DNA from: Escherichia phage BF17
Sequence record: MW822008.1
Direction: 5' to 3' (one strand)
DNA: 64,000 bases
A model generated the notes under the pieces. It was not told the origin of the DNA, did not search any database, and saw nothing but the letters and a program-made list of their open reading frames with translations. Shown piece after piece: positions 47,093 through 59,953 of this stretch; position 1 is the stretch's first letter; the number at the start of each line of letters is the position of its first letter. The translations under genes and the position numbers were made by a program.

Positions 47093-47130
47093 AAGTACTT
47101 GCAAACTATGTTTAAAGGCGTATAATGTTT
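47093..47130 (+). promoter_or_regulatory. early-type promoter driving a non-coding leader
   Basis: ACTTGCAAACTATGTTTAAAGGCG TATAAT; no ORF before the next promoter. Confidence 0.55.
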
Positions 47131-47215
47131 TACATCAGGACGGGGAACGAAATAAGTAACTCCCCGTTAAGTAGCCCAGGAGTAAGGCACACGAAAAACT
47201 CCCCTGATAAAATAG
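47131..47215 (+). ncRNA. candidate small RNA / structured leader, copy 1
   Basis: ~85-nt conserved block CAGGACGGGGAACGAAA.AAGTAAC.CCCGTTAAGTAG.CCAGGAGTAAG...CCCCTGATAAAA; second copy at 57447-57525. Confidence 0.4.
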
Positions 47216-47262
47216 TTTGACAAATGTTTTTAAAAGCGTATAATACTTACATCAACTACTGA
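47216..47262 (+). promoter_or_regulatory. promoter upstream of 47277
   Basis: TTGACA ... TATAAT before GAGGG and ATG. Confidence 0.45.
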
Positions 47263-47276
47263 ATGAGGGTTACAAA

Positions 47277-47888
47277 ATGAAAACTATCACTACTACTACT
47301 TTCGTTATGGATTTTTCTGAATTGAACGCAGAACAAAAAACGTCAGCTATCGAACTGGTTCGGGAACGTGAAAAAAACTTAAACGATGATTATTTTTCTG
47401 AAAGTGAAATTGAATACTATAAAGAAACAGTACTACCGGAATATGGCATTAATGACGCTGATTTACGTTTCAGTGGCTTTTGGTCCCAGGGTGACGGTGC
47501 ATCAATCAGTACTGACCACGTTGACGCAGTGAAGTTTTTACGCAAGGTAAGAGCATTAACTAAGTATCGCTCAATCCGTCACTTGCTGAATGAAGATGAT
47601 TTGGCGATGAGTGTAAAGCGTTCTCACTCCCACTACTCGCATGAAAACACTGTAAGCGGGTACATTGAATCGGCTTACACTGATTTAACCGCAAAACAAG
47701 AAACGTTAGTTAATGAGCTTGAGGAACTACTCACTGAAACTATTCGTGAATTATCCCGCAAGTTGTACCGTGATTTAGAGAATGCATATGAGGATCAATT
47801 CACTACTGAAAACATTACGGCACTGATTGAGGGTAACGAATATCAATTCAATGTTATTGATGGCGTAGTAGAATCAATCGAATATTAA
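47277..47888 (+). CDS. hypothetical acidic protein
   Basis: 203-aa ORF. Confidence 0.65.
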   Translation: MKTITTTTFVMDFSELNAEQKTSAIELVREREKNLNDDYFSESEIEYYKETVLPEYGINDADLRFSGFWSQGDGASISTDHVDAVKFLRKVRALTKYRSIRHLLNEDDLAMSVKRSHSHYSHENTVSGYIESAYTDLTAKQETLVNELEELLTETIRELSRKLYRDLENAYEDQFTTENITALIEGNEYQFNVIDGVVESIEY

Positions 47889-47896
47889 TTTAAAAA

Positions 47897-47960
47897 AGTA
47901 CTTGCAAACTAAGTTTAAAAGCGTATAATACTTTATATCGAGGCGGGGAGTGGTTCCCCG
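47897..47960 (+). promoter_or_regulatory. early-type promoter with leader hairpin
   Basis: ACTTGCAAACTAAG...TATAAT; hairpin GCGGGGAGTGGTTCCCCGC. Confidence 0.6.
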
Positions 47961-47979
47961 CTCAAACGAGGATTTAAAA

Positions 47980-48219
47980 ATGGCTAGTTCTAAAACTTAC
48001 AACGGGCACAAAAACAAAACTCAATGGAATGTAAGCCTTTGGATTAATAACGGTGAGTCATTGTATCGGCTTGCACAAAGTTGTATCGCACAAAGTAGAA
48101 CTAAAGATATTGCAGCGGAATGTATGTACCGCAGATTAAAAGCCAACGGTACTACTACAACGCCGGACGGTTTTAAGTATAGCACTACTGCGATCCGTGC
48201 TGCAATGGTTGGAATGTAA
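47980..48219 (+). CDS. hypothetical protein, paralog of 45940-46179
   Basis: trimmed to MASSKTYNGHKNKTQWNVSLWINN. Confidence 0.6.
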   Translation: MASSKTYNGHKNKTQWNVSLWINNGESLYRLAQSCIAQSRTKDIAAECMYRRLKANGTTTTPDGFKYSTTAIRAAMVGM

Positions 48220-48276
48220 TATTCAGTACTGAGATAATGGCGGGTAATAGTTCCCGCCTTTACTGAGGGTTATCTA

Positions 48277-48537
48277 ATGAGTAAAGTAATAAAGTACAAT
48301 GTGTTAAGCAAATCATTGTCTATCAGTGAATGCACCGATGGTTTTTGGATGTACGATGAAACGCGTGGCATGAATTTAGCTATGCGTGCAAAAACTGCTG
48401 AGGCGGCGTATATTCAAGCACTGGAATACTACCAGGAACGTTTAAAGGAAGTAGAAGAAGATTATAAAAGCCTCAAAGCGAAAGTAGATCATTTCGTCGG
48501 TCAATTCATCGAGGAAGACGACGACAAACAATATTGA
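48277..48537 (+). CDS. hypothetical protein
   Basis: 86-aa ORF, GAGGG upstream. Confidence 0.55.
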   Translation: MSKVIKYNVLSKSLSISECTDGFWMYDETRGMNLAMRAKTAEAAYIQALEYYQERLKEVEEDYKSLKAKVDHFVGQFIEEDDDKQY

Positions 48538-48540
48538 AAA

Positions 48541-48606
48541 AGTACTTGCAATTAGTTTTCAGTACTGTATAATGGTTTACATCAAAGGGAGAAATGGTTC
48601 TCCCTG
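48541..48606 (+). promoter_or_regulatory. early-type promoter with leader hairpin
   Basis: ACTTGCAATTAG...TATAAT; hairpin GGGAGAAATGGTTCTCCC. Confidence 0.6.
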
Positions 48607-48623
48607 GTAATGAGGAAAATAAA

Positions 48624-48845
48624 ATGGCTAATATCACTACTCTTTCCCAACTGGAAGCACTGGTTAAATCTATGCGGGAACATGCCGACAAAATCGGCGT
48701 ACAAGATCCAGCCGTTTGCTTCTGCGACGAATTGAATGATGATACCCTGGTAATAGCAGAAGTCCAGGACGTTTCTAACTATTCATCGCGTTACACTGGC
48801 GGCGTAGCAAATAAAGGTGACTTCTGTTTATACCTTACAAAATAA
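48624..48845 (+). CDS. hypothetical protein
   Basis: trimmed to MANITTLSQ. Confidence 0.55.
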   Translation: MANITTLSQLEALVKSMREHADKIGVQDPAVCFCDELNDDTLVIAEVQDVSNYSSRYTGGVANKGDFCLYLTK

Positions 48846-49009
48846 CAACGCGGGGAGATAATAACTCCCCGTTACTTTTTCAGTACTGAATCATTTAATA
48901 GACGGATCTATGCACCCGGTGGGTTAGTGACTGTTTCGTCTTGATGTAGTAATTATGCCAGTACTGGATGCACTTGTCAACAACTATTTTTCAAATACTT
49001 TTTATTAAA

Positions 49010-49068
49010 ATACTTGCAATTAGTTTTTAAACGCGTATAATGTTTTGCATAGGGGGAGCGGTTCCCCT
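49010..49068 (+). promoter_or_regulatory. early-type promoter with leader hairpin
   Basis: ACTTGCAATTAG...TATAAT; hairpin GGGGGAGCGGTTCCCC. Confidence 0.6.
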
Positions 49069-49088
49069 GGTAACTAAGGAATAATAAA

Positions 49089-49325
49089 ATGCTTGAACAA
49101 ATCAAATCAACGTCTTCGAATGTAACGGGAACGGTAGCACACTTTACTAGTGATGAATCGCGGGGCGTTCCCTATTGTGCTGTACATGTAAACACTGAGG
49201 GTAACTACTGGTTTACGGTTTACGGATCATATTCATTTGGACGGCCAGGGCATCAAAAAATTCTGGATAAAGTACAACCAACGGGTAAAAATATCACTGC
49301 TGAAATGTTTTATAAAAAATCATAA
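49089..49325 (+). CDS. hypothetical protein
   Basis: 78-aa ORF. Confidence 0.55.
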   Translation: MLEQIKSTSSNVTGTVAHFTSDESRGVPYCAVHVNTEGNYWFTVYGSYSFGRPGHQKILDKVQPTGKNITAEMFYKKS

Positions 49326-49326
49326 A

Positions 49327-49390
49327 GTACTTGATAATAGTTTTTAGTACTGTATAATATTTTACATCGCAAGGGGGAGCGGTTCCCCCT
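49327..49390 (+). promoter_or_regulatory. early-type promoter with leader hairpin
   Basis: ACTTGATAATAG...TATAAT; hairpin GGGGGAGCGGTTCCCCC. Confidence 0.55.
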
Positions 49391-49409
49391 GGTAACTAAG
49401 GATAATCAA

Positions 49410-49709
49410 ATGAAAATTGCAATCATCGCCCTGGCTTTATCTGTTTCCTCTTTCGCTGTTAATGCGTCATTAGATGTAAGTAGTGAAAAATTCATTCAGT
49501 GCACTGTTGCAATGACCGATGAAAGTACTGGCGAGATTGTTTTAAAGGATTTAGAGATCCAGCCGGAAGCATTTAAAAACGGGCCGTTCCATGAAGAAGA
49601 CGAAAAAGGTAGCACGACAATTTATTACGATGCAAGTACTAAACGCGGTTCGGTCACTGTTATGGATACTGAGAAAGTAACTCATACTGGCGTTATTAAT
49701 TGCCGTTGA
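49410..49709 (+). CDS. small secreted protein
   Basis: 99 aa; signal-peptide-like MKIAIIALALSVSSFAVNA. Confidence 0.6.
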   Translation: MKIAIIALALSVSSFAVNASLDVSSEKFIQCTVAMTDESTGEIVLKDLEIQPEAFKNGPFHEEDEKGSTTIYYDASTKRGSVTVMDTEKVTHTGVINCR

Positions 49710-49730
49710 TATATACTACGGGGTAACATC

Positions 49731-49961
49731 ATGACTAAGCGAATTGTTTTACTTAACGAAAGCAGTACTACACAACTACTTAACGCCGTGCATTATGATA
49801 TTGAAACGAGCGTTAATCTTATCAGTACTGTAGTACTGTTGGACACTGGAAAGGTCGCCAATGATAAAGCGATTGCAGGTATACTAACGGATCTTGAGCC
49901 TGGTAGCAGTGCATCAATAACGTTAAATGGTAAAGTGTTTAACATTTTACTTACTGATTAA
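49731..49961 (+). CDS. hypothetical protein
   Basis: 76-aa ORF. Confidence 0.5.
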   Translation: MTKRIVLLNESSTTQLLNAVHYDIETSVNLISTVVLLDTGKVANDKAIAGILTDLEPGSSASITLNGKVFNILLTD

Positions 49962-49966
49962 GTACA

Positions 49967-49995
49967 TAGCCCACCTGGTGGGCTTTTTTGTTTTT
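49967..49995 (+). terminator. rho-independent terminator
   Basis: AGCCCACCTGGTGGGCT + TTTTTGTTTTTG. Confidence 0.65.
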
Positions 49996-50043
49996 GTAGT
50001 ATCGTAGTACTGAGATACTTTGAAAATAGTTTTAAAAAAGTAG

Positions 50044-50072
50044 TTGACATTACCGCAGAAAAGCGTAGAATG
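50044..50072 (+). promoter_or_regulatory. sigma70-like promoter with ~120-nt leader
   Basis: TTGACA, 16-17 nt, TAGAAT. Confidence 0.5.
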
Positions 50073-50194
50073 TATTACATCAAGACGGGGAGCACTAAGT
50101 AGACCGCCAGTAAGTCGAACGAAAAACTGGACACGTCGAGAAAACTTTGATACACTAATAAACGTAAACTAAACTTTAATTGAGGATTTATAAA

Positions 50195-50677
50195 ATGGCT
50201 AATGTAAAATCATTCATCAAAGCACTGGTAGCAAATGAAACTAACGTCGCGGCTGAGATCCTGGCTGAACTGGATAACGATACCATGAAAGCGGTACGCA
50301 ATAATTTTAACATCGCGTACAGTACTGCGAAAGAACTACAAGCAAATAAAGCGGCAGAAATTGAAGCGGCAAAGGCGGCCCGTGAAGCAGAACTACAAGC
50401 AACAATCGAAAGTATTCAGGCGGCAGTAGTTGGATTGGATCTGGAAGTAGTTACAGAGATGGCACAAAAAGCCCTGGCGGTTAAGTATGGGGAAGACAAG
50501 CCAGAAGTAAAAGCCAAAAAATGGATTCAGGAACGCGTAGCGGTAGTACTGGACAACGGGGAAGAATATCTGATTCCGGTGCGTGGTAACTGCATTGCGG
50601 TAGTACTGGACGCGATTAACTCCAGTGGTATGACTCGCGAGGAATGGATCGAAGCTCATCGCAAAGTTGAAGCATAA
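50195..50677 (+). CDS. hypothetical Ala/Glu-rich protein
   Basis: trimmed to MANVKSF after GAGGA; ~160 aa. Confidence 0.6.
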   Translation: MANVKSFIKALVANETNVAAEILAELDNDTMKAVRNNFNIAYSTAKELQANKAAEIEAAKAAREAELQATIESIQAAVVGLDLEVVTEMAQKALAVKYGEDKPEVKAKKWIQERVAVVLDNGEEYLIPVRGNCIAVVLDAINSSGMTREEWIEAHRKVEA

Positions 50678-50698
50678 CAATTAAAGTACTGAATCACT

Positions 50699-50730
50699 AG
50701 CCCACTTATACAGTGGGCTTTTTTGTGTTT
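50699..50730 (+). terminator. rho-independent terminator
   Basis: AGCCCACTTATACAGTGGGCT + TTTTTGTGTTT. Confidence 0.65.
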
Positions 50731-50875
50731 ATCGTTTACCAGGCCACCAGCACCGCCTAGAAACGATTCTAACGCATTAAACTGATTATCTGATGCATCA
50801 CCCTAGCTGGTGGCGTTAAGGTCGTTAGAATGCGATTGAGTGCGTTTAAAGTATTTTACAAAAAGTAATAAAAAG

Positions 50876-50940
50876 TACTTGCACGATTAAGAGATTAGCG
50901 TATAATGTTTTACATCGAGAGGGGGAAACGGTTCTCCTTC
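50876..50940 (+). promoter_or_regulatory. early-type promoter with leader hairpin
   Basis: ACTTGCACGATT...TATAAT; hairpin GGGGGAAACGGTTCTCC. Confidence 0.55.
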
Positions 50941-50961
50941 CAAATCAAAGGAATCAAAACA

Positions 50962-51189
50962 ATGGCTATTATCATTACTCGCGTATCTGGTACTACTGGC
51001 AACGAACAAGTAGTTGCAGTCATTACCAACAAGGAAGGTGCGGAATTGCAAAATGCAATGAATACCTGGGCCGTTAATGAGTTCGGTCAGTGGGCAAGTG
51101 TAGCATACATTGAAACCTATCAAGTGCCGTCGATTAGTTTAACTGATTTGGGCGTTGAGCGTATCCTTTGCCTTGATGAATTAAATTAA
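50962..51189 (+). CDS. hypothetical protein
   Basis: trimmed to MAIIITRVSG. Confidence 0.55.
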   Translation: MAIIITRVSGTTGNEQVVAVITNKEGAELQNAMNTWAVNEFGQWASVAYIETYQVPSISLTDLGVERILCLDELN

Positions 51190-51193
51190 AAAA

Positions 51194-51260
51194 GTACTTG
51201 CAAAGTAAATCGAATAAAGTATAATACATTACATCAAGGGGAGAAAATGGTTCTCCCCAC
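51194..51260 (+). promoter_or_regulatory. early-type promoter with leader hairpin
   Basis: ACTTGCAAAGTAAATCGAATAAAG TATAAT; hairpin GGGGAGAAAATGGTTCTCCCC. Confidence 0.55.
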
Positions 51261-51275
51261 TACAAGGAAACTAAA

Positions 51276-51419
51276 ATGAAAACTTGTCAATGTGGTCAGA
51301 AATCTATTACGGGTTTAAAGCGGGGCGTTGCTCTTTGCCAGTACCATTATAATTTACAAGTATGGGGTAAAGAATGGGCCGACCAGGTGGAAGCAGCAAA
51401 GAAAGCAAAAAGTAAGTAA
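51276..51419 (+). CDS. small Cys-containing protein
   Basis: 47-aa ORF below cutoff; MKTCQCGQ...CQYH. Confidence 0.4.
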   Translation: MKTCQCGQKSITGLKRGVALCQYHYNLQVWGKEWADQVEAAKKAKSK

Positions 51420-51438
51420 AAATATTATCACAGTACTA

Positions 51439-51467
51439 TTGACATAGTTTGATAGTACTGGCATAAT
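51439..51467 (+). promoter_or_regulatory. sigma70-like promoter (TTGACA class), in an ~80-bp repeat
   Basis: TTGACATAGTTTGATAGTACTGG CATAAT; block repeated at 51712-51790. Confidence 0.55.
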
Positions 51468-51498
51468 AGATTTTATCAAGACGACTAAGGAAAACAAA

Positions 51499-51711
51499 AT
51501 GGCTATCATTACAAAAATCAAAGTAAACAAATCACTGGTTAAACTTGAACAAGTGAAAGCAGGTTATAAAGTATCGTGGTGCGGTATGTATCGGATGTTC
51601 GCAGATATTGATGAAGCGATCAATTATTACAGCGACACGGTTAAAAACTTTGTTCGTGCTGATGTGGTTATGGCAGTGGCAGCACATAAAGCAGCGAAAG
51701 AAAGTAAGTAA
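51499..51711 (+). CDS. hypothetical protein
   Basis: 70 aa; MAIITKIKV; N-terminal similarity to 54613-54792. Confidence 0.55.
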   Translation: MAIITKIKVNKSLVKLEQVKAGYKVSWCGMYRMFADIDEAINYYSDTVKNFVRADVVMAVAAHKAAKESK

Positions 51712-51730
51712 AAATATTATCACAGTACTA

Positions 51731-51759
51731 TTGACATAGTTTGATAGTACTGGCATAAT
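51731..51759 (+). promoter_or_regulatory. sigma70-like promoter (TTGACA class), repeat copy
   Basis: same sequence as 51439-51467. Confidence 0.55.
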
Positions 51760-51800
51760 AGATTTTATCAAGACAACATATTAATTTAAGGAATACAAAA

Positions 51801-52124
51801 ATGGCTAAAACTATCATTAACACCGTTTCCCTGGCTGCAATCCGTGCAATCAATGTTGACGGTAAACGTTGGACTGATTCATATGGCAATACTTATCATT
51901 CTTGTCATGTAAGCGTTGAACTGGATAACGGTTTGAATGATCTGGCGGTTGAATCATTTACTTATGGCTATGAAGATGCATATCAACAAACGGCGTTAGA
52001 TCTCTTAAAGGAATCAGTAGACGGGCTTAATACTGATGAAACCTCCCTTACTCGTTTGTGCAATGATCTTAATATCCCGTTGCATTGTACTGTACAGAAT
52101 GTTAAACGCAAAAAAGATCTTTAA
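51801..52124 (+). CDS. hypothetical protein, paralog of 58219-58542
   Basis: 107 aa; shared RWTDS.GNTYHSC.VS and FTYGY, ending VKRKKD. Confidence 0.6.
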   Translation: MAKTIINTVSLAAIRAINVDGKRWTDSYGNTYHSCHVSVELDNGLNDLAVESFTYGYEDAYQQTALDLLKESVDGLNTDETSLTRLCNDLNIPLHCTVQNVKRKKDL

Positions 52125-52204
52125 TTAGCTTTACTTTATGCAGATACTTTGATATAGTGTCTGCATAGGGGAAAGAAATTAAATTAACTTAAGAGGATCG
52201 TATA

Positions 52205-52474
52205 ATGAAAAATATCAGTACTTTAATCGATGCAGGTACACATGTTCGGCGGTCTATGGTTGCAACCAGTACTACAAAACAAGTAGCGAGCGGTTATCTT
52301 GTATTTGTGCACGATGGTAAACTCCTGGAACGTTCAATCAATTTTGATGTTAAAAACAATTGCCGTTTTATTATCTTTAAGCGTGAACAATATAAAATTG
52401 ATTTACCAGCGAAGCCCATAAGCGGGGCGTACAACGTGCAATCATTGTTTGAGCGTCAACCTTACACCTATTAA
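52205..52474 (+). CDS. hypothetical protein
   Basis: 89-aa ORF, GAGGA upstream. Confidence 0.55.
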   Translation: MKNISTLIDAGTHVRRSMVATSTTKQVASGYLVFVHDGKLLERSINFDVKNNCRFIIFKREQYKIDLPAKPISGAYNVQSLFERQPYTY

Positions 52475-52525
52475 TCAAAACATCGTTAGCGGTCGTTTAA
52501 GGCCGCTTATATTGGGGATTATACC

Positions 52526-52798
52526 ATGAACGTTAATCAAGTACTGAATGAGATCGAAAGCATCATTAAACCGATGAAGCGTACTGATGCTATGTTAACA
52601 CCGGAAGAAAGCCGCCTATATGAGCGTTACAGCGTCGAACAAGTCCAGGCAATGGCTATGGCTACGCCAGCCGTTAAACCGCCTGAGAATGCGTTACAGG
52701 ACGTTACAGGGGATTATATCATTAATCCAGTACTAGGGAAGATGCCGCCAATCACCGAAGAACAAAAAGACTATTTGAGTCAGTACTTAAAAGGTTAA
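52526..52798 (+). CDS. hypothetical protein
   Basis: 90-aa ORF. Confidence 0.55.
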   Translation: MNVNQVLNEIESIIKPMKRTDAMLTPEESRLYERYSVEQVQAMAMATPAVKPPENALQDVTGDYIINPVLGKMPPITEEQKDYLSQYLKG

Positions 52799-52803
52799 TT
52801 AAT

Positions 52804-53013
52804 ATGCTTACTGTACAGGATAAGATCGACATCTTAAAGGTTAATATGTATGTGATTGATGCCGTACCTGGTAAAGTATTTGCATACGATGATTCTAATC
52901 GCAGTCCTTTCTATTGTAGTCATGTAGTTGGATACGTGCCGTTGGCGTATGTTATCGAAAGAGTGGTTGATGCAGCATACAATCATTTTTTAGAAAATAA
53001 TACTTGCAATTAG
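52804..53013 (+). CDS. hypothetical protein
   Basis: 69-aa ORF. Confidence 0.5.
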   Translation: MLTVQDKIDILKVNMYVIDAVPGKVFAYDDSNRSPFYCSHVVGYVPLAYVIERVVDAAYNHFLENNTCN

Positions 53014-53065
53014 TTTTTAAACGCGTATAATGTTTTACATGAAGGGGAGAAATGATTCTCCCCAC
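53002..53065 (+). promoter_or_regulatory. early-type promoter with leader hairpin
   Basis: ACTTGCAATTAG...TATAAT; hairpin GGGGAGAAATGATTCTCCCC. Confidence 0.55.
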
Positions 53066-53082
53066 TAATTAAGGAATATGAA

Positions 53083-53229
53083 ATGAAAGCATCAAAAAAG
53101 AGTAATACCAAGAAAGCATGTTCACCTTTCGCTGGGGTATTCCCTTTACGTTTCGTTGATGAAGTGGTTTCCTACCCGCTGGGCCTTACTCCTGAGATGG
53201 TAGAAAGTTTGCGTAAATCTAAAAAATAA
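53083..53229 (+). CDS. small basic protein
   Basis: 48-aa ORF below cutoff. Confidence 0.4.
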   Translation: MKASKKSNTKKACSPFAGVFPLRFVDEVVSYPLGLTPEMVESLRKSKK

Positions 53230-53230
53230 T

Positions 53231-53292
53231 ACTTGCAATTAGTTTTCAGTACTGTATAATAGTTTACATGAAGGGGAGAAATGATTCTCCCC
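53231..53292 (+). promoter_or_regulatory. early-type promoter with leader hairpin
   Basis: near-duplicate of 53002 unit. Confidence 0.55.
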
Positions 53293-53310
53293 AATAACAG
53301 GAGAAACAAA

Positions 53311-53463
53311 ATGAAACAATACAACGCTCGGTTTGATGTTACTATCGGCAACGGCAAAGGTCAATTCTCTTTCAGTACTCGCCGCAGTTATACAGAAAAC
53401 TTCCTGCGAAATTGTGCACTGACCGCCGCACAAATTAAACATTACTTCCAGGCTAAAAAATGA
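53311..53463 (+). CDS. small protein
   Basis: trimmed to MKQYNARF; 50 aa. Confidence 0.45.
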   Translation: MKQYNARFDVTIGNGKGQFSFSTRRSYTENFLRNCALTAAQIKHYFQAKK

Positions 53464-53679
53464 AATCATTAGCTTATTACAGTTCGGCGGTGATCGGTGC
53501 ATTGATCGCGGCATTGTTAGTAACCTATCTATTCTTTATGGTGATTTAAATGAATCCTAACGGTTTAATTTACAGTACTACTAAAACGAAAGCAGATAAA
53601 GCGAAAGTAAAGGAGTACATTAAGCAAGGCATGACGCGAAAGGCGGCAGTACTGAAAGCTAAAAAATAAATGAAAAAAG

Positions 53680-53699
53680 TGGTTGACTTCGGTCAGCCA
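53680..53699 (+). terminator. hairpin terminator with embedded TTGACT
   Basis: TGGTTGACTTCGGTCAGCCA. Confidence 0.5.
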
Positions 53700-53800
53700 T
53701 TTTGCTATTATATATTCATTGAGAGATAGCTCACTAGCCCACCGGGTGCATAAGTGTATCTATTATATAAGTATTGAGTACTGAGAACTATTTTTAAAAA

Positions 53801-53866
53801 GTACTTGCAAACTATCTCAATTGGCGTATAATGTTTTACATCGAGAGGGGGAACGGTTTCCCCTGG
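53801..53866 (+). promoter_or_regulatory. early-type promoter with leader hairpin
   Basis: ACTTGCAAACTATCTCAATTGGCG TATAAT; hairpin GGGGGAACGGTTTCCCC. Confidence 0.6.
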
Positions 53867-53883
53867 TAATAAGGAAACGAATC

Positions 53884-54225
53884 ATGACTATCTCAATTGC
53901 TCAATCTAACTTTGAAAATGAAATCATCGCCCAGGCACTGCGTTTAAATGATGGTCGGGCCGAAATTAATTACGGTTTCAATTCAGGCGGTTGTGAAAAC
54001 TATCAGTACTTTGTAACTGCTGATGGCGGTGTCCTGGGCATCAATACCGTTATTGTAAACATTCAGAAAATTAATTTCAATGATCCAGACGATAGCCAGT
54101 TTTACATTGTAGGCGTAGACGTGAACTATGAGGATGACTCACTAACTGATGATCACACTGGCGAGAAGTTAGAAAGTGCATACGGTGAAGATGATTATCA
54201 GTCCGGTCCAGAAGATTTTGAATAA
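53884..54225 (+). CDS. hypothetical acidic protein
   Basis: trimmed to MTISIAQSNFE; 113 aa. Confidence 0.6.
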   Translation: MTISIAQSNFENEIIAQALRLNDGRAEINYGFNSGGCENYQYFVTADGGVLGINTVIVNIQKINFNDPDDSQFYIVGVDVNYEDDSLTDDHTGEKLESAYGEDDYQSGPEDFE

Positions 54226-54238
54226 TATTAAAAAATAG

Positions 54239-54300
54239 TTTGACAATAGATTATAGTACTGTATAATAAGTTACATCAAGGGGAGAATAGTTCTCCCCAC
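54239..54300 (+). promoter_or_regulatory. sigma70-like promoter with leader hairpin
   Basis: TTGACA-17-TATAAT; hairpin GGGGAGAATAGTTCTCCCC. Confidence 0.6.
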
Positions 54301-54316
54301 TAACAGAGAAAACAAA

Positions 54317-54529
54317 ATGGCTAATATCTGCACTGTACTGAAAAATGCAAAACAAGTTTTATTTTCTGACCACGATTATTTTAATAAAGATATTACAGGC
54401 GTTCGGAATATCAAAGATGTAAAAAGTGTTATGGGTATCTATTGCAATATGAAACGTGTTGGAACGTTCGGCGACAAAGTACTATACCAGGCAGGGGATT
54501 ACAATTTTACACTGACTATCATTAACTAA
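54317..54529 (+). CDS. hypothetical protein
   Basis: 70-aa ORF. Confidence 0.55.
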   Translation: MANICTVLKNAKQVLFSDHDYFNKDITGVRNIKDVKSVMGIYCNMKRVGTFGDKVLYQAGDYNFTLTIIN

Positions 54530-54548
54530 AAATATTATCACAGTACTA

Positions 54549-54578
54549 TTGACATAGTTTGATAGTACTGACATAATA
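54549..54578 (+). promoter_or_regulatory. sigma70-like promoter (TTGACA class), repeat copy
   Basis: third copy of the 51421 block with -10 variant ACATAAT. Confidence 0.5.
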
Positions 54579-54612
54579 ACTTTTATCAACTACACTACTA
54601 AGGAATTAAAAA

Positions 54613-54792
54613 ATGGCTATCATCGCAAAAACTGAAATCGTTGGTCTGGATTCTATCATCATGACGTTTGAAGATCAAAAAGGTATGTATGTAGTTTCAT
54701 ATGGTGATTATGTTCGGGAGTATGAAACGGTAGACGAAGCCTTTGAAAGTTATATTCGCCAGGTGAATAAAGCATACGACGACTACCGCTAA
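54613..54792 (+). CDS. small protein
   Basis: 59-aa ORF below cutoff; MAIIAKTEIVGL. Confidence 0.45.
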   Translation: MAIIAKTEIVGLDSIIMTFEDQKGMYVVSYGDYVREYETVDEAFESYIRQVNKAYDDYR

Positions 54793-54819
54793 AATATATT
54801 ACCAGTACTATTAAAGTTA

Positions 54820-54848
54820 TTGACATAGTTTGATAGTACTGTATAATA
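54820..54848 (+). promoter_or_regulatory. sigma70-like promoter (TTGACA class)
   Basis: TTGACATAGTTTGATAGTACTG TATAAT. Confidence 0.5.
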
Positions 54849-54891
54849 AGTTTTATAAACAGTAGTTAACTTAACCTAAGAGAGAAATAAA

Positions 54892-55035
54892 ATGATCGCA
54901 CTGGATTCATTCATCGACGCAGTACTGGCAAAAACTGGCGAGGATCTGACCGCAGAACAATACGCGATGATCGAGCAATGTCAGCAAAACGGTAAATCGG
55001 TGAAAGATACTGTTAAGATTATCCGCAAGATGTAA
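54892..55035 (+). CDS. small protein
   Basis: 47-aa ORF below cutoff; followed by terminator-like inverted repeat. Confidence 0.4.
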   Translation: MIALDSFIDAVLAKTGEDLTAEQYAMIEQCQQNGKSVKDTVKIIRKM

Positions 55036-55134
55036 GATTATAGCCCACTGGTTAACGCTGGTGGGCTTTAATCCTTTACCCTATACAATGTCAGTACTAA
55101 ACCGTTTATCTCATTAGAATGCGTTACAGGACGT

Positions 55135-55338
55135 TTGACAATGATTAGCATGAAATCAGTACAAAAACAAATAGAAACATTATCAAAAATTAAACGTAAA
55201 CAGTACTCGTTAGAATATACAATCAATGGTAACTATCATCTAATGAAAGAGAATAATTTTATCGTCATTGATGAATCATTGCAAGTTATTAGTATAGTAC
55301 TGAAAGCATTAATTAATGATAGAAAAAAATTAAAATAA
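55135..55338 (+). CDS. hypothetical protein
   Basis: 67-aa ORF. Confidence 0.45.
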   Translation: MTMISMKSVQKQIETLSKIKRKQYSLEYTINGNYHLMKENNFIVIDESLQVISIVLKALINDRKKLK

Positions 55339-55669
55339 TCTATTGACAATATCCTCCAGTACTGGCATAATACTTACATCAAGACGAGAACGTCACTAAC
55401 CCATAGGGTGCACAAATGTAACTGTATAATATTGATCAAAAAATGATCTGATCAATACTTGATCAATTTGCGTAAAGTAGTATAATTCTATGCAGTTGGT
55501 TAGACGAAAGGTTATGATTAGTAGTGCAAGTGTATAAAAATTTTCATGGTGTATCGTTCCGCACATATGGCAATGAATATGTGGTATCATGTGGATTGGA
55601 AAAAGTAAGAACAAGTAATATTATTGTCGCATTACAGTACTATAGTATTTTTATAATGAGGTTAAAATA

Positions 55670-55927
55670 ATGGCTGTAGGATTCGCGAAAGATGGGGCCG
55701 AACAAGACGAGATTAACGCAGTGATTCAGGCCGCCGTTAACCACGCTAGAAAGCAAATTAACGCACAAATAGAATCACTGATACATTGCCTCGACTGCGG
55801 CGATATAATCCCTGAGAAACGACGCCAGGCCGTTAAGGGATGTAAGTACTGCATAACTTGCCAGGAGGATCATGATAGTACTTTTAAACGTCCCCCGCGT
55901 AATTGTTGGCATAGATCTATGAGATAA
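55670..55927 (+). CDS. TraR/DksA-family C4 zinc-finger protein
   Basis: 85 aa; C-x2-C...C-x2-C in HCLDCGDIIPEKRRQAVKGCKYCITCQE. Confidence 0.65.
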   Translation: MAVGFAKDGAEQDEINAVIQAAVNHARKQINAQIESLIHCLDCGDIIPEKRRQAVKGCKYCITCQEDHDSTFKRPPRNCWHRSMR

Positions 55928-55933
55928 AAAGTA

Positions 55934-55990
55934 TTGACAGTACTATCCAGTAGTGTTATAGTACTTACATCAAGGGGAAACATCTTCCCC
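55934..55990 (+). promoter_or_regulatory. sigma70-like promoter with leader hairpin
   Basis: TTGACAGTACTATCCAGTAGTG TTATAGT; hairpin GGGGAAACATCTTCCCC. Confidence 0.5.
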
Positions 55991-56002
55991 TACTAAGAGG
56001 AA

Positions 56003-56197
56003 ATGAAAATGGAAAACTTATCAAGTATTTTAGTACAAGATGATTTCGGTAATCCTGGAAGTGCTATCATTGTTCGGGGTAATAAAGCAACATTTGTTAT
56101 TGCTGGTGGACCTGTACAGCGTAGCATTAAAAACAATGCCGTTACTATTAATAATGTACGCTATCGCTTAGATAAAGAATTGATTCATAAACTGTAA
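56003..56197 (+). CDS. hypothetical protein
   Basis: 64-aa ORF (alternative start 56009). Confidence 0.5.
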   Translation: MKMENLSSILVQDDFGNPGSAIIVRGNKATFVIAGGPVQRSIKNNAVTINNVRYRLDKELIHKL

Positions 56198-56224
56198 TAT
56201 TAATTTAATAGAGGATAACAATAA

Positions 56225-56548
56225 ATGTACATTCATACTACTATCACAAAGGAAGTCCGTTGCCAGTTCGAAAGTATTCCGGGCGTATGTTTCATCACTG
56301 GTACGTTTTCCCCTGGTGATCGTGATAATCCAGTACTGTTACAATTACGCCATCCATCATGGGATAAAGCATTTGATCTACCGTTGAATGAATTCGCAAC
56401 TACTGCTGAAAAGTACATTAAAAATATTCGCGAGAATGATCGACTATTCATTAATGCTTTCAGTGATTCCGCGTTAAGCGAGATCCACAGCGTATTGGTT
56501 GCAATCATGGAATCAATGGAGAAAACTAAATTCAAACAAGGTGAATAA
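56225..56548 (+). CDS. hypothetical protein
   Basis: 107-aa ORF, GAGGA upstream. Confidence 0.55.
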   Translation: MYIHTTITKEVRCQFESIPGVCFITGTFSPGDRDNPVLLQLRHPSWDKAFDLPLNEFATTAEKYIKNIRENDRLFINAFSDSALSEIHSVLVAIMESMEKTKFKQGE

Positions 56549-56553
56549 AAACT

Positions 56554-56616
56554 ATTGACAAGATAATCTAGTACTGTATAATAAGTTACATGAAGGGGAG
56601 AAATGATTCTCCCCAC
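56554..56616 (+). promoter_or_regulatory. sigma70-like promoter with leader hairpin
   Basis: TTGACA-17-TATAAT; hairpin GGGGAGAAATGATTCTCCCC. Confidence 0.6.
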
Positions 56617-56631
56617 TGAGAGGAAAGAAAA

Positions 56632-56844
56632 ATGCAAGGTCAACTAATCGTTCGTAAATGGTCTGATACTAACGCTAAACCGTGGGATGTACAATACATC
56701 GGACCGGATGGGGTATCACGTTATCAGCCTGGCGTAACGCATAGTACTGAGCAATATGCCGCCGCTCACCGCGAACGCCTGTTAGAATCCATGAAACAGG
56801 GATACGGTGAAAAATTCATTCAAGATCATTGGCTGAAAGATTAA
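56632..56844 (+). CDS. hypothetical protein
   Basis: 70-aa ORF. Confidence 0.55.
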   Translation: MQGQLIVRKWSDTNAKPWDVQYIGPDGVSRYQPGVTHSTEQYAAAHRERLLESMKQGYGEKFIQDHWLKD

Positions 56845-56861
56845 TATAAGGAGTACAGCTT

Positions 56862-56954
56862 ATGCAAATGAATCCGATGATTATTGTGTTAGCTGTACTT
56901 ATGATCATTCATGCAATAGTAAAAGTATTAACGCAATCAGGAGTAATAAAATGA
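56862..56954 (+). CDS. small hydrophobic peptide
   Basis: 30-aa ORF; AAGGAG upstream; single TM-like helix. Confidence 0.35.
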   Translation: MQMNPMIIVLAVLMIIHAIVKVLTQSGVIK

Positions 56955-57124
56955 TTCAAGTAGAATTATCAGTACTGAAAGATCTGTTTTATCGGTTAGG
57001 TACTACTGGCGAGTATCCTAAAAGTGATACCGCAAAACTTTTTGTATCACTCGACTTATGGCAACGCGAACAATTAGTAATGTCCTGGCGTAAAGGTAAA
57101 GCAGATAGCGAGGTGAAAGCATGA
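56951..57124 (+). CDS. small protein
   Basis: 57-aa ORF overlapping upstream stop (ATGA). Confidence 0.35.
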   Translation: MIQVELSVLKDLFYRLGTTGEYPKSDTAKLFVSLDLWQREQLVMSWRKGKADSEVKA

Positions 57125-57270
57125 AAGAATTCTTATTCGAAGTAGTGTTTCAAGGTGTCGGTAGTAACCAACTGATTCGCTCAAGTGGTTATAATGTTAA
57201 CCAGGCATGGAATAACATTAAACAAATGTACCCGAACGCTATCACCTATCGCAACCCGAAAGAAGTTTAA
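57121..57270 (+). CDS. small protein
   Basis: 49-aa ORF overlapping upstream stop. Confidence 0.35.
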   Translation: MKEFLFEVVFQGVGSNQLIRSSGYNVNQAWNNIKQMYPNAITYRNPKEV

Positions 57271-57284
57271 AAATATTTGAAAAA

Positions 57285-57306
57285 GGGATTGACTCCGGTC
57301 AGTCCC
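57285..57306 (+). terminator. hairpin terminator with embedded TTGACT
   Basis: GGGATTGACTCCGGTCAGTCCC. Confidence 0.55.
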
Positions 57307-57414
57307 TTTGCTATTATATACGCATAGAAACAAATCAGCCCACAGGGTGCATAAATGTATCTATTGTTTGCTGGTGGCTAGTACTGAAAACTATTTTTAA
57401 AAAAGTACTTGCAT

Positions 57415-57446
57415 TGTACTTAGAATCAAGTATAATGTTTTACATC
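57415..57446 (+). promoter_or_regulatory. early-type promoter driving the second candidate small-RNA copy
   Basis: ACTTGCATTGTACTTAGAATCAAG TATAAT. Confidence 0.55.
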
Positions 57447-57525
57447 AGGACGGGGAACGAAACAAGTAACCCCGTTAAGTAGTCCAGGAGTAAGACATAA
57501 GAAAACCTCCCCTGATAAAATAGTT
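57447..57525 (+). ncRNA. candidate small RNA / structured leader, copy 2
   Basis: near-identical to 47131-47215; again between an upstream promoter and a downstream TTGACA...TATAAT. Confidence 0.4.
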
Positions 57526-57585
57526 TGACAATAGAAAGTAAACGAGTATAATACTTACATCAACCACTGATAAGGAAACATTAAA

Positions 57586-57861
57586 ATGCGGATTCTACTG
57601 ACAGCTAACGAAATCGAACAAGTACTGACTACTAACCTGGAAGACTGGAAACGTGAAGCAGATATCCAGGCGGTTCAACTGCTTAACGATAAGTTAACGC
57701 CGGATGACTTAAGCAAGATTGTAGATCCTCAATTCTACGAAGATATCCACGACACCGCGTTAAGCGTCGAGGATGTACTAGATAAGCACTACATTGATAT
57801 TGATTTGCAGGTTTACGGTCGTAAAAACTTTATCACTATTCACGACATTTATAATAATTAA
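57586..57861 (+). CDS. hypothetical protein
   Basis: 91-aa ORF. Confidence 0.55.
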   Translation: MRILLTANEIEQVLTTNLEDWKREADIQAVQLLNDKLTPDDLSKIVDPQFYEDIHDTALSVEDVLDKHYIDIDLQVYGRKNFITIHDIYNN

Positions 57862-57863
57862 GT

Positions 57864-57925
57864 ATTGACAAAGTATCTTAGTACTGTATAATAGTTTACA
57901 TCGAGAGGGGGAATGGTTCCCCTCC
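57864..57925 (+). promoter_or_regulatory. sigma70-like promoter with leader hairpin
   Basis: TTGACAAAGTATCTTAGTACTG TATAAT; hairpin GGGGGAATGGTTCCCCTCC. Confidence 0.6.
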
Positions 57926-57947
57926 TAACAAAGAGAGAGAAATAAAA

Positions 57948-58130
57948 ATGGCTAAATGCACTATCTGCAAGAAAGAAATAGTATTAGTTCCAAGTGCCCG
58001 TGAACGTGCCGCTCGGTTCGGTGGCAAAGCGTCAGACTATACAAAAATGTTTACTACCCATGCAGCTTGCCAGGTAGCAAAACGTTCACAAGAAAGCGTA
58101 GAATTAATGCGTAAACTTTCCAAAAAATAA
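57948..58130 (+). CDS. small Cys-containing protein
   Basis: 60 aa; C-x2-C at N-terminus. Confidence 0.5.
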   Translation: MAKCTICKKEIVLVPSARERAARFGGKASDYTKMFTTHAACQVAKRSQESVELMRKLSKK

Positions 58131-58133
58131 GTA

Positions 58134-58196
58134 TTGACAAAGTATCTTAGTACTGTATAATAGTTTACATCAAGTGAGGGGAAACGGTTCCCCTCC
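58134..58196 (+). promoter_or_regulatory. sigma70-like promoter with leader hairpin
   Basis: near-duplicate of 57864 unit. Confidence 0.6.
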
Positions 58197-58218
58197 TAAC
58201 AAAGAGAGAGAAATAAAA

Positions 58219-58542
58219 ATGGCTATGATCCTTGCCCAGAAAGTAGAACTGAAAATTGTAACCTCCTTTGACATTAAAGTTAATCGGTGGACTGATTCAC
58301 ACGGCAATACTTACCACTCTTGCTACGTGTCCGCGTTAATTGGCGACCGCTGGGAAGACTTGGGACATGAAACCTTTACTTACGGTTACGGTACACAAGG
58401 AGAATACACGGGCTTGGAGATCATTAAAGAAACCGTTATAGGTTTCAACCCGAAAGAAAAAGTTATTCACCGCATCGAAAAAGAGATTAACAAAGAAATA
58501 ACAGTTCGCTACTACGATGTAAAACGTAAGAAAGACATGTAA
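58219..58542 (+). CDS. hypothetical protein, paralog of 51801-52124
   Basis: trimmed to MAMILAQ. Confidence 0.6.
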   Translation: MAMILAQKVELKIVTSFDIKVNRWTDSHGNTYHSCYVSALIGDRWEDLGHETFTYGYGTQGEYTGLEIIKETVIGFNPKEKVIHRIEKEINKEITVRYYDVKRKKDM

Positions 58543-58637
58543 TAGAATCCATTTAAAGTACTATTTGACATTGCCCAGATAGTACTTTATAATAGACTCT
58601 AACTTGTAGTACTAACTCAACTAATAGGATGTATACC

Positions 58638-59033
58638 ATGATTACTAAATTCTACGCTACCCGTGAAGCTGCCCGTATTGTTGCACGCGAGGAAGGAGCA
58701 GCATTTAAAGACATGGGCAAAGATGCACCGAAAGGTCAACGCTGGGCCGTACAGTTCAAAGAAATCTCTGATATTGTGAATTCACCTGAGCCAGTACTAA
58801 CAGCAGCAGAACTAAAACGAGCGGATTTACTGGCGGCAGTACTTAACGCACAAGATGAATTTATCGCTGATTCTGATATCAAAGTACAGACAAACCATAC
58901 CGCTTGGACTCACGCGGATCACCTGGCAAACCTTAAGCGTCCAAGTGAACTGGTTCGCAACCAGAAAGAGATCCGACACGACCGTAAGGGTAATCGTGTA
59001 ACAGTATACAGTAAACGCCGCCAGGTTATCTAA
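58638..59033 (+). CDS. hypothetical protein, paralog of 46266-46532
   Basis: trimmed to MITKFYATREAARIVAREEG. Confidence 0.6.
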   Translation: MITKFYATREAARIVAREEGAAFKDMGKDAPKGQRWAVQFKEISDIVNSPEPVLTAAELKRADLLAAVLNAQDEFIADSDIKVQTNHTAWTHADHLANLKRPSELVRNQKEIRHDRKGNRVTVYSKRRQVI

Positions 59034-59054
59034 TAACTTGCAGTACTAACAACA

Positions 59055-59088
59055 CGGCGGGATCAGTTCCCGCCTTTTTTATAGGATA
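59055..59088 (+). terminator. rho-independent terminator
   Basis: GGCGGGATCAGTTCCCGCC + TTTTTT. Confidence 0.65.
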
Positions 59089-59095
59089 AACTAAA

Positions 59096-59350
59096 ATGAT
59101 TAAGGTACAACTATCTAAAGATAATATCTTGCGGGTACACTATAAAGCACCACAGAGAATCATCACAAAGGCCGTACAGCTTGCTAATGAGTTTATTAAT
59201 GGTAACCTATTACCAAGGAAGTTAAGCAACGGAAAACTGCGTGTAATCGATGTAGACACTAACAACAGAATAGTAATTGAGAACACAGGAAAGATAAACC
59301 TATATGAACACCAACAATATAATAAGAAAATAAAACTAATATCACGTTGA
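59096..59350 (+). CDS. hypothetical protein
   Basis: 84-aa ORF. Confidence 0.5.
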   Translation: MIKVQLSKDNILRVHYKAPQRIITKAVQLANEFINGNLLPRKLSNGKLRVIDVDTNNRIVIENTGKINLYEHQQYNKKIKLISR

Positions 59351-59376
59351 CAGTACTCAATTGTTTTAGTATTATG
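59347..59376 (+). promoter_or_regulatory. sigma70-like promoter
   Basis: TTGACA-17-TATTAT; duplicated at 59623. Confidence 0.55.
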
Positions 59377-59403
59377 TACACATACCAACACGGGAGAAAC
59401 AAA

Positions 59404-59622
59404 ATGAAATTATCTAAAATCGAAAAGAAAACTATTGATGAAGCAGTTAAGCACGGTTATACCTTTCGTAATGATTCACATTTTACCAATTTTCAACAAG
59501 GCCAAAGGACTATTAAAAAACTAATTGACAAAGGTTTATTAGTTAAAGTAGATAACGGTAACGGCATTGAGTATCAGCCAACCCAAGACGCATTATCTTT
59601 AAAGAAATATGCAATTATCTAA
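59404..59622 (+). CDS. hypothetical protein
   Basis: trimmed to MKLSKIEKK. Confidence 0.55.
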   Translation: MKLSKIEKKTIDEAVKHGYTFRNDSHFTNFQQGQRTIKKLIDKGLLVKVDNGNGIEYQPTQDALSLKKYAII

Positions 59623-59653
59623 TTGACAGTACTCAAATGTTTTAGTACTATAT
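59623..59653 (+). promoter_or_regulatory. sigma70-like promoter (duplicate of 59347 unit)
   Basis: TTGACAGTACTCAAATGTTTTAG TACTAT. Confidence 0.55.
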
Positions 59654-59679
59654 GTACATACCAACACGGGGAAAACAAA

Positions 59680-59922
59680 ATGATTACTTTAGAAAAACGT
59701 ATCAAAGAAACTACATCGCTGGTGGAACTGTTAACAGTACTGAAATGCCGTACTACTCGGTTTAGTACACCGGACTTTATTAATATGGTTGATGTTAACG
59801 GTCGTTATCGCATTGCAGTAGAACATGGAACAGCGAAAGTATTCAGTACTAAAAACACTAAGGAAGTGATTCACGCGGTTAGTGTGAAAAAAGTGGTTGC
59901 CATTGATAGTAAAGTACTGTAA
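59680..59922 (+). CDS. hypothetical protein
   Basis: trimmed to MITLEKRIKE. Confidence 0.55.
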   Translation: MITLEKRIKETTSLVELLTVLKCRTTRFSTPDFINMVDVNGRYRIAVEHGTAKVFSTKNTKEVIHAVSVKKVVAIDSKVL

Positions 59923-59953
59923 GATAGTTTCATTAACTCAAGGAGAACATGCA

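Follow-up and report, generated by a model that had tools for sequence, protein, structure and literature searches.

A recurrent promoter-coupled unit in the terminal repeat of a jumbo coliphage is a candidate multicopy early non-coding RNA

A 12-base motif found in ten full copies within an 18-kb part of the 64,000-nucleotide stretch of DNA examined in the present study (the window) is best explained as the core of a multicopy immediate-early non-coding RNA module recognised through an invariant hairpin, a reading to which we assign a probability of roughly 45%. The repeated unit measures ~45-50 nt in all and comprises, in order, a first hairpin (hairpin 1), the 12-mer CCCAYNGGGUGC, a 5-nt loop with a 3' arm, and TATWRT. 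Judged from predicted start sites and 3' ends and from the structure model, the unit is transcribed, strand-specific, structured and under selection. The reading as a non-coding RNA module is supported by compensatory changes in hairpin 1, by promoter coupling, by restriction to the terminal repeat and by spread over six host genera, and it draws further on the observation that in at least one-third of cases the unit is the only possible product of its promoter.

Occurrence of the motif was compared with chance expectation by several searches. With up to three mismatches the 23-mer CCCACMGGGTGCATAARTGTATC matched six times in the window (0 expected from 100 shuffles), a 13-mer core with up to two mismatches 12 times against 1.9 expected, and the pattern GGGTGCRNNNNTNNNNCY 11 times against 0.27 expected. 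Ten of the 12 core matches are genuine, those at 24508 and 36341 being spurious. A covariance model run over every window position returned exactly ten units at E<=1e-6 (E 1e-6 to 2e-14); the best score below these was that of a half copy at 44671-44689 on the plus strand (E 0.31), followed by noise. All window copies, four on the minus strand and six on the plus, lie within 44.5-62.6 kb (10 units per 18 kb), with none in the remaining 46 kb. For a genome-wide census, the complete genome of slurp01 (348,043 bp) was reassembled from its public record, and all ten of its covariance-model matches fell in one ~17-kb stretch, the terminal repeat (record positions ~77.6-94.8 kb). The other 330 kb of slurp01 held no unit; the bare 12-mer pattern matched there once, at 175801, a plain palindromic terminator that was rejected as a unit. 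The initial annotation had described an element recurring on both strands and had proposed such a census: its positions prove accurate within ~10 nt, the ten full copies and one half copy stand against a chance expectation of practically zero, and in slurp01, where our own calculation gives ~0.05 expected copies of the 12-mer pattern, the element is confined to the repeat. The element is thereby confirmed as real; it greatly exceeds chance expectation and belongs to one region, not to the genome as a whole. Two ordinary terminators of the form AGCCCAC-loop-GTGGGCT (49968-49984 and 50699-50719) share CCCAC/GTGGG with the motif in their stems and so could be mistaken for copies by eye.

Asteriusvirus jumbo coliphages with genomes of ~348-378 kb (SHEFM2K, slurp01 and the PBECO4/121Q group) share 91-96% identity with window positions 53000-56000, and by this similarity the window is assigned to an Asteriusvirus-like (PBECO4/121Q) jumbo coliphage. 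The record of vB_Ec-M-J carries an annotated direct terminal repeat of 21,525 bp, position 1 of which aligns to window position 43411 with 98% identity, and the terminal repeat of Sharanji measures 20,668 bp by PhageTerm (PMC11895373). Together, this start and this length place the left ~20.6 kb of the terminal repeat at 43411-64000, the sole region of the window with motif units. The repeat begins with a 1.7-kb non-coding terminus (43411-45100), after which come dozens of small genes directed rightward, the majority of them behind a sigma70-type promoter of their own. The repeat, its units and their neighbouring elements are listed below.

43411..64000, no strand: direct terminal repeat (left part only within the window), placed by alignment to vB_Ec-M-J
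44449..44421, minus strand: further leftward promoter after unit 1
44490..44574, minus strand: unit 1, leftward, in the non-coding start of the terminal repeat (E 1e-10, folding z -2.4); promoter TTGCTT-16-TATAAT at 44574..44547, predicted start ~44540; hairpin 1 AGUC-GAGAAA-GACU; 12-mer 44518..44507; 3' arm UACGCCC ending at 44495, then CAAAAT at 44495..44490
44609..44697, plus strand: degenerate half unit, convergent partner of unit 2 (E 0.31); weak promoter TTGCTA-18-TACTAT; hairpin ACU-GAGAAA-AGU; core CTGCTAGGGTGC at 44666-44677, its CCCA half missing; hairpin 2 at 44671-44690 with T7 directly after, terminator-like
44706..44790, minus strand: unit 2, leftward (folding z -2.3); promoter TTGACT-16-TATAAT at 44790..44763, predicted start ~44756; hairpin 1 CGC-GAGAAA-GCG; 12-mer CCCAGAGGGTGC at 44734..44723; 3' arm UACGCCC
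46881..46963, plus strand: unit 3, rightward, half of a convergent pair; promoter TTGACT-17-CATAAT at 46881..46909, predicted start ~46916; hairpin 1 UGGC-AGAUAA-GCCG; 12-mer 46935-46946; 3' arm ending at 46958
46975..47053, minus strand: unit 4, leftward, converging with unit 3 (predicted starts ~100 bp apart); promoter TTGACA-17-CATAAT at 47053..47025, predicted start ~47018; A-rich leader without clear stem; 12-mer 47003..46992
48838..48980, minus strand: unit 5, resembling a stand-alone small-RNA gene and antisense to the adjacent genes; promoter 48980..48952, predicted start ~48945; hairpin 1 GAC-GAAACA-GUC; 12-mer 48923..48912
48871..48851, bidirectional: terminator of unit 5, ~28 nt after the unit, with a U-rich tail; predicted RNA ~100 nt
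53676..53766, plus strand: unit 6, the copy on which the initial annotation was placed (E 1e-13); terminator hairpin 53676-53703 with cUUCGg loop and embedded -35 TTGACT; -10 TATTAT ending at 53711, predicted start ~53718; hairpin 1 UGAG-AGAUAG-CUCA; 12-mer 53738-53749; 3' arm UGUAUCU ending at 53761; TATTAT at 53761-53766
53805-53832, plus strand: promoter of the gene after unit 6
55343..55428, plus strand: unit 7; promoter TTGACA-17-CATAAT at 55343..55371, predicted start ~55378; hairpin 1 GACG-AGAA-CGUC; 12-mer 55400-55411; 3' arm UGUAACU; following promoter 55459-55486
57282..57367, plus strand: unit 8; terminator/promoter hairpin 57282-57309, -10 TATTAT, predicted start ~57324; short A-rich leader AUAGAAACAAAUCAG; 12-mer 57339-57350
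60550..60640, plus strand: unit 9, the top model match (63.9 bits); terminator/promoter hairpin 60550-60577, predicted start ~60592; hairpin 1 UGAG-AGAUAG-CUCA; 12-mer 60612-60623
62516..62602, plus strand: unit 10; terminator/promoter hairpin ~62520-62541, -10 TACTAT, predicted start ~62559; leader AUAGAAACAAAUCAG; 12-mer 62574-62585; 3' arm UGUAUCC
62665-62693, plus strand: promoter following unit 10

Beyond the window, the covariance model brought the total to 116 units in Rak2-like phages of Escherichia, Klebsiella, Cronobacter, Pectobacterium, Serratia and Erwinia. These were pooled from the window, slurp01, RaK2, 121Q, CBB, GAP32, Serratia BF, a 366-kb IMG/VR contig and 19 metagenome contigs, and the 91 distinct units referred to below belong to this pool. 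Public records matching the unit mostly have nothing annotated beneath it. Rfam 15 returned no match on the units of 43.5-64 kb at E<=5, none in 53700-53790 at E<=10, and sub-threshold terminator-like matches only in 48830-48950. When 185,579 genomes of bacteria and archaea were searched for the motif pattern joined to its commonest 3' arm, the sole match was an unrelated GCACCC/GGGTGC terminator, and on this evidence the unit is neither a copy of a host RNA nor prophage-borne. A full-text literature search with the 12-mer strings yielded unrelated primers only, and the genome papers on CBB (PMC5259590) and Sharanji (PMC11895373) describe sigma70-like promoters and terminal repeats and not the motif unit.

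Every window copy is preceded on its own strand by a sigma70-type promoter, the 12-mer starting 14-23 nt past the predicted start (~+15 to +35), and this co-oriented promoter just upstream of each copy implies that the motif is transcribed. A conserved CAT located 7 nt past the -10 marks the likely transcription start. Six of the ten window units have an ordinary promoter of the TTGACA-17-CATAAT/TATAAT type, and in the other four a terminator hairpin looped by cUUCGg contains the -35 TTGAC, and its T-tract the -10 (TATTAT/TACTAT). The element had been placed between a terminator hairpin and the next promoter, which describes the copies at 53738, 57339, 60612 and 62574, whereas the other six follow ordinary promoters; even in those four, the presumed terminator hairpin itself bears the -35 of a sigma70 promoter, with the -10 in its T-tract. 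That the element is recurrent, strand-oriented and intergenic is correct, and the promoter is co-oriented with it in all window copies. A strict promoter test (at least 4/6 matches per hexamer, with the -10 ending 19-29 nt upstream on the same strand) was passed by 84 of the 91 distinct units, and with a relaxed -35 by all 116 pooled units. The same geometry was seen on the opposite side of 18/91 units, mostly because of convergent partners.

Downstream of the units stands a terminator, a convergent partner unit or the promoter of the next gene, and almost never a gene directly. A convergent partner is faced by 19 of the 91 distinct units, and a terminator follows within ~95 nt in at least 13. 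The window contains two convergent arrangements (units 3 and 4, and unit 2 with the half copy), and such pairs also occur in CBB, BF, the 366-kb contig and five metagenome contigs; the promoter-unit-terminator layout of unit 5 is likewise found in RaK2 and the 366-kb IMG/VR contig. A unit serves directly as the 5'UTR of a gene in two lineages only (u366 and L051), and no window unit leads straight into a Shine-Dalgarno sequence and ATG (SD-ATG). The gene 3' of the unit in these two lineages, found at 12666-13202 of L025, in L051 and, on the plus strand, at 5403-6914 of the window, encodes an MPGQF... protein with a disordered, basic, G/S/N/Q-rich N-terminus and no Pfam domain match. Its window homologue lies outside the repeat and without a unit, preceded only by a hairpin-promoter and an A-rich leader. 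With no Pfam match and a homologue that lacks the unit, this gene gives no lead to a partner protein.

Terminator/promoter hairpins inside the repeat drive a unit, the next gene having a separate promoter 30-70 nt beyond, whereas like hairpins outside the repeat (972, 5346, 7609, 12081, 12664 and 15424) lead to SD-ATG after ~20 nt. That the same kind of hairpin-promoter drives genes outside the repeat and a unit inside it, where the next gene has its own promoter, points to the RNA as the cargo. Dual-purpose hairpins of the form GGGTTGACTTCGGTCAGCCC-TTTTTGCTATAAT stand immediately before genes at 972, 5346, 6927, 7609, 12081, 12664 and 15424, each combining an intrinsic terminator (cUUCGg tetraloop) with the next promoter, in that the stem contains the -35 and the T-tract serves as the spacer. 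Predicted transcripts of the gene-proximal promoters (53838-53885, 45117-45167 and others) start with CAUCGAGAG and carry a stable G+C hairpin (GGGGAAC..GUUUCCCC) ahead of the ribosome-binding site, a common 5'UTR design that may stabilise the mRNAs.

Just upstream of the motif, between the predicted start and the 12-mer, lies the covarying hairpin 1, which the initial annotation had overlooked. It has a 3-5-bp stem and a purine-rich loop of 6-8 nt (GAGAAA, GCGAAA, AGAUAA, AGAACAA). A stem of at least 3 bp was present in 61 of the 70 distinct leaders against 36 in shuffles, a count reached by 0/500 shuffles, although such statistics are not probabilities because the sequences are related by descent. 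Around 30 different stem sequences were observed, with compensatory changes. Each of the four pairs shows two-sided changes in 29 units that share one geometry, a set chosen for pairing, and again in the 100 distinct model-aligned units (e.g. AU 25, GC 25, CG 24), the alignment of which is fitted to the model; 89% of hairpin 1 cells are paired in the latter, against 33-54% in slid controls of the whole two-helix structure. In place of the hairpin at window 46916-46934, and between near-identical flanks, the orthologue of unit 3 in 121Q has the different hairpin AUUG-AAACGAA-CAAU; on inspection, most of the changes between the window and its slurp01 and 121Q orthologues affect predicted loops.

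No indel interrupts the stretch between 12-mer and TATWRT, which contains a 5-nt purine-rich loop and a 7-nt arm (among others UGUAUCU, UCCGUCU and UACGCCC); TATWRT follows the end of the 12-mer at a distance of 11 bp. A second helix (helix 2), in which GGGUGC pairs with the 3' arm GYRYCY by way of G.U pairs, has 91-93% of its cells paired compared with 29-68% when slid. Its changes are restricted to GU<->GC and UA<->UG, and the top pair turns from CG to GC in three of the four units with G as the last 12-mer base. The G.U pairing means that helix 2 could form only in RNA of the motif strand and not of its complement. RNAalifold favours a competing mini-hairpin, RCCC-AYN-GGGU; the two share GGG and are mutually exclusive, and two-sided covariation proves neither. 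Variants of the 12-mer include CCUAUA in Serratia BF and GGGUGG, and C-to-U variants keep a U.G pair of the mini-hairpin. The invariance of the 12-mer is overstated because the pattern used for the initial collection of units fixed 10 of the 12 core bases; the model search adds ~10-15% of units with variant cores. TATWRT, directly past helix 2, is conserved (T 78%, A 82%, T 84%), with T in only 58% at the last -10 position.

Folding of single sequences gave z values of -0.4 to -2.4 relative to shuffles, with one unit at +0.4, so that the structure, if real, would be weak or partner-dependent. The claim that the element is not itself a hairpin is true of Watson-Crick DNA, and no classical terminator is formed, but as RNA the same bases offer two exclusive helices. 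Helix 2 is G.U-rich, contrary to an intrinsic terminator, and a U-run occurs in the window only at the half copy (44671-44696); among the 91 pooled distinct units a U-run follows ~4, and a terminator scan called no other window unit. A long-range helix between leader (AGAUA, AGACG) and 3' arm, which appears in some minimum-energy folds, was discarded as it is not kept across unit types. CsrA-type GGA loops occur in about half of the units and in one of ten in the window, and the idea was dropped; likenesses to DnaA boxes, IHF sites and T7 class II terminators fail across variants when judged by eye.

In the proposed module, a strong host-type (sigma70) early promoter would fire 14-23 nt before the core, and the RNA itself would be the product of the unit promoter. 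A nearby terminator, collision with a convergent partner unit, or processing would generate its 3' end, and the invariant hairpin would be recognised by a protein, be it a host factor, which the RNA would titrate, or a factor of phage or host origin, which it would recruit. Two highly expressed ncRNAs have been reported from the terminal repeat of the related phage PA5oct (PMC7318152); these differ from the unit in length (ncRNA001/002, 236-451 nt) and in being single-copy, and the PA5oct terminal repeat contains neither the motif nor a match to the model. Several observations weigh against an RNA module, namely the units that form the 5'UTR of a gene in two lineages, the marginal folding z, the exclusive and unproven helices, and the rigid indel-free spacing from 12-mer to TATWRT, which resembles a spacing constraint of DNA or RNA polymerase. 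Moreover, plus-strand units without their own terminator should read into the next operon, which a leader fits better than a separate RNA gene. Regarding the functions suggested in the initial annotation, a protein-binding site may hold, more probably on RNA than on DNA, and nothing supports a recombination or double-strand-break signal.

It is possible, if rather doubtful, that the unit acts in cis as a nascent-RNA element that reprograms host RNA polymerase, in the manner of HK022 put, of lambda nut with an N-type protein, or of an antiterminator/terminator switch. Polymerases from unit promoters would then resist the terminators of the early region, and those from gene-proximal promoters would not. 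The position of the core at ~+15 to +35 of the predicted early-promoter transcript, always just past the promoter and co-oriented with it, recalls putL, which extends from +2 of the PL transcript, and TATWRT right after helix 2 has a counterpart in the -10-like element of putL, a proposed sigma-dependent pause that helps folding (PMC9378689). Each unit has two small stem-loops, the competing helices share GGG as in attenuators, plus-strand units without terminators precede operons that end in strong terminators, and the promoter-unit-SD-ATG order of two lineages is like PL-nutL-N. An RNA-only device would also suit the first-transcribed DNA, prior to any phage protein. As in lambda nut and rrn leaders, a short purine-loop hairpin stands beside an invariant single-stranded block in early leaders, and the loops of hairpin 1 (GAGAAA, GCGAAA, GAACA-type) may resemble boxB loops.

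Orientation and context fit a cis-acting element less well. About 40% of window units point against neighbouring genes, and many units meet a terminator or convergent partner, where anti-termination would result in long antisense RNA or head-on collisions; the downstream genes each have their own promoter. putL and putR are ~70-nt RNAs with two long stem-loops that need no phage protein (PMC9378689), whereas the unit is shorter (~45 nt, ~45-50 nt in all), has weak helices of 3-6 bp, and is present in 10-12 copies in both orientations rather than in two sense copies. Unlike lambda nut, the unit has the hairpin and the single-stranded block in reversed order, many units are antisense to neighbouring genes, and no N-like protein was found, the u366 gene after the unit being without Pfam match and its window homologue without a unit. 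No Rfam family matched, the unit has no apparent similarity to put as described, and the 12-mer does not appear to resemble boxA (CGCUCUUA).

A site acting at the level of DNA is unlikely, whether an operator at +15 to +35, where a DNA-binding protein of phage or host would act as a roadblock and silence these promoters, or a MotA-box-like activator site at -35..-24 with TATWRT as a middle -10. In its favour, the 12-mer hardly varies, unlike genuine RNA stems, which tend to covary; CCC-N3-GGG forms a short inverted repeat, the two sites of a convergent pair are inverted relative to each other at a distance of ~45 bp, and the indel-free block in which the 12-mer ends 11 bp before TATWRT has the geometry of a -30 box plus -10. 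Left unexplained, however, are the covarying and length-variable hairpin 1, the limitation of 3'-arm changes to G.U/G-C/U-A/U.G pairs with GGGUGC, the C-to-U variants of the 12-mer that keep a U.G pair, and the 100% co-orientation with an upstream promoter. The geometry fits a T4-type middle promoter, but the box is unlike the MotA box or the middle-type promoter box proposed for CBB, TGAAACG (PMC5259590), only 58% of units have T at the last TATWRT position, and several units meet a terminator at once; a middle promoter with a terminator 30 nt on, as at unit 5, makes little sense.

The closest described architecture is that of the PeSL cassettes of T4-type phages, in which a terminator stem-loop and a sigma70-like early promoter are repeated between variable small genes, ending in a Shine-Dalgarno sequence and start codon without a conserved transcribed RNA (PMC2839356, PMC4122927). 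All ten window units have the sigma70-like early promoter, and four of them begin with an upstream or overlapping terminator stem-loop (53676, 57282, 60550 and ~62520), the other six being without one. The units differ in that their promoter drives a conserved structured non-coding segment, with SD-ATG directly after it in none of the window units. It is decidedly unlikely that the unit is merely a functionless passenger of a mobile, PeSL-like promoter-terminator cassette (~170 bp) spreading by duplication or recombination in the repeat. Four units do lie within larger near-identical cassettes of terminator/promoter, unit, UP element and second promoter (e.g. 53676-53855 compared with 60550-60683), and cassettes of T4-type phages mediate module shuffling (PMC2839356, PMC4122927). 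Against this, the flanks are wholly different between unit types, the core and structure persist across genera that share a third of their proteins, and the compensatory changes indicate selection on structure.

It is highly improbable that the units provide primer or R-loop promoters for origins of replication within the terminal repeat, comparable to the ori(uvsY)/ori(34) transcripts of T4, to the superfamily of which Rak2-like phages belong, with G-cluster RNA staying hybridised beside an AT-rich unwinding region: non-coding transcripts from dedicated promoters, an RNA G-run followed by AT-rich DNA, and units of the 1.7-kb non-coding terminus that adjoin iteron-like repeats would be in keeping with it, but there are ten to twelve copies per repeat, the pairs are convergent and not divergent, an R-loop does not need covarying RNA hairpins, and the entire genome is AT-rich.

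Returning to the multicopy non-coding RNA, a comparison can be made with phage decoy RNAs (RNA anti-CRISPRs or solitary repeat units, and pseudo-ToxI), which are short, structured and multicopy, have their own promoters and bind a host defence protein. The unit shows no convincing similarity to the type I-E and I-F repeats of the hosts with which it was compared by eye (~16/28 positions for I-F), and its stem is just 3-4 bp. As a tentative and somewhat doubtful extension, each repeat may contain 10-12 immediate-early RNA genes (20-24 per virion genome) whose ~45-nt product acts before any phage protein, as an RNA decoy or by put-like polymerase conversion; if true, this battery of terminal-repeat RNAs would represent a novel type of RNA device for host takeover. 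How giant phages that depend on the host polymerase control their early genes has hardly been studied, and the terminal repeats of such phages are seen as lists of small hypothetical genes; in the related PA5oct the terminal repeat is the region highly transcribed early (PMC7318152). The present study adds a conserved, unannotated, promoter-coupled candidate RNA module with coordinates, a structure model and ~100 natural variants, and with it the testable question of whether RNA rather than protein takes the first step of take-over, through anti-termination, decoy or regulation. Annotation would also benefit, with ~10 promoters per repeat that drive no gene and several ORF calls that overlap units.

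The non-coding terminus at 43411-45100, which is without a credible gene, has further features. It contains iteron-like repeats at 44200-44330 (GGCTAGATGG / GGCTAAACGG / GGACG), three copies of TTTTGGGCGTA, numerous CAGTACTGA, and three tandem leftward promoters directed at the genome end, and may be an origin, packaging or injection-control region. Chi (GCTGGTGG) is clustered in the terminal repeat in a single orientation, with eight of the ten plus-strand window copies and, in slurp01, nine of the 18 genome copies falling in the repeat (record positions 77-95 kb); one site (57370) is beside unit 8, and the predicted genome end has an inverted Chi pair (CCACCAGC acaa GCTGGTGG) at a distance of ~590 bp. 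The clustering suggests that the DNA ends are protected from RecBCD. The sites, all in the same orientation, are as follows.

43995-44014, 50806, 55057, 56102, 57370, 59718, 61125 and 62632: Chi sites

Ahead of the terminal repeat, the minus strand of 20681-37102 carries a tandem array of ~14 ORFs of similar size (mostly 370-430 aa), presumably paralogues, the counterparts of which in slurp01 are annotated as hypothetical proteins. A tRNA/tmRNA scan of the whole window found none. The palindrome AGTACT (a ScaI site) occurs 275 times in the 64 kb, against an estimated ~20-25 expected by composition, and CAGTACTG 63 times in the window. AGTACT is found in coding and non-coding DNA, frequently in promoter spacers (CAGTACTGGCATAAT), and the same excess is seen in related metagenome contigs (Rak2-like loci L040-L060), with for example 89 copies in 12 kb.
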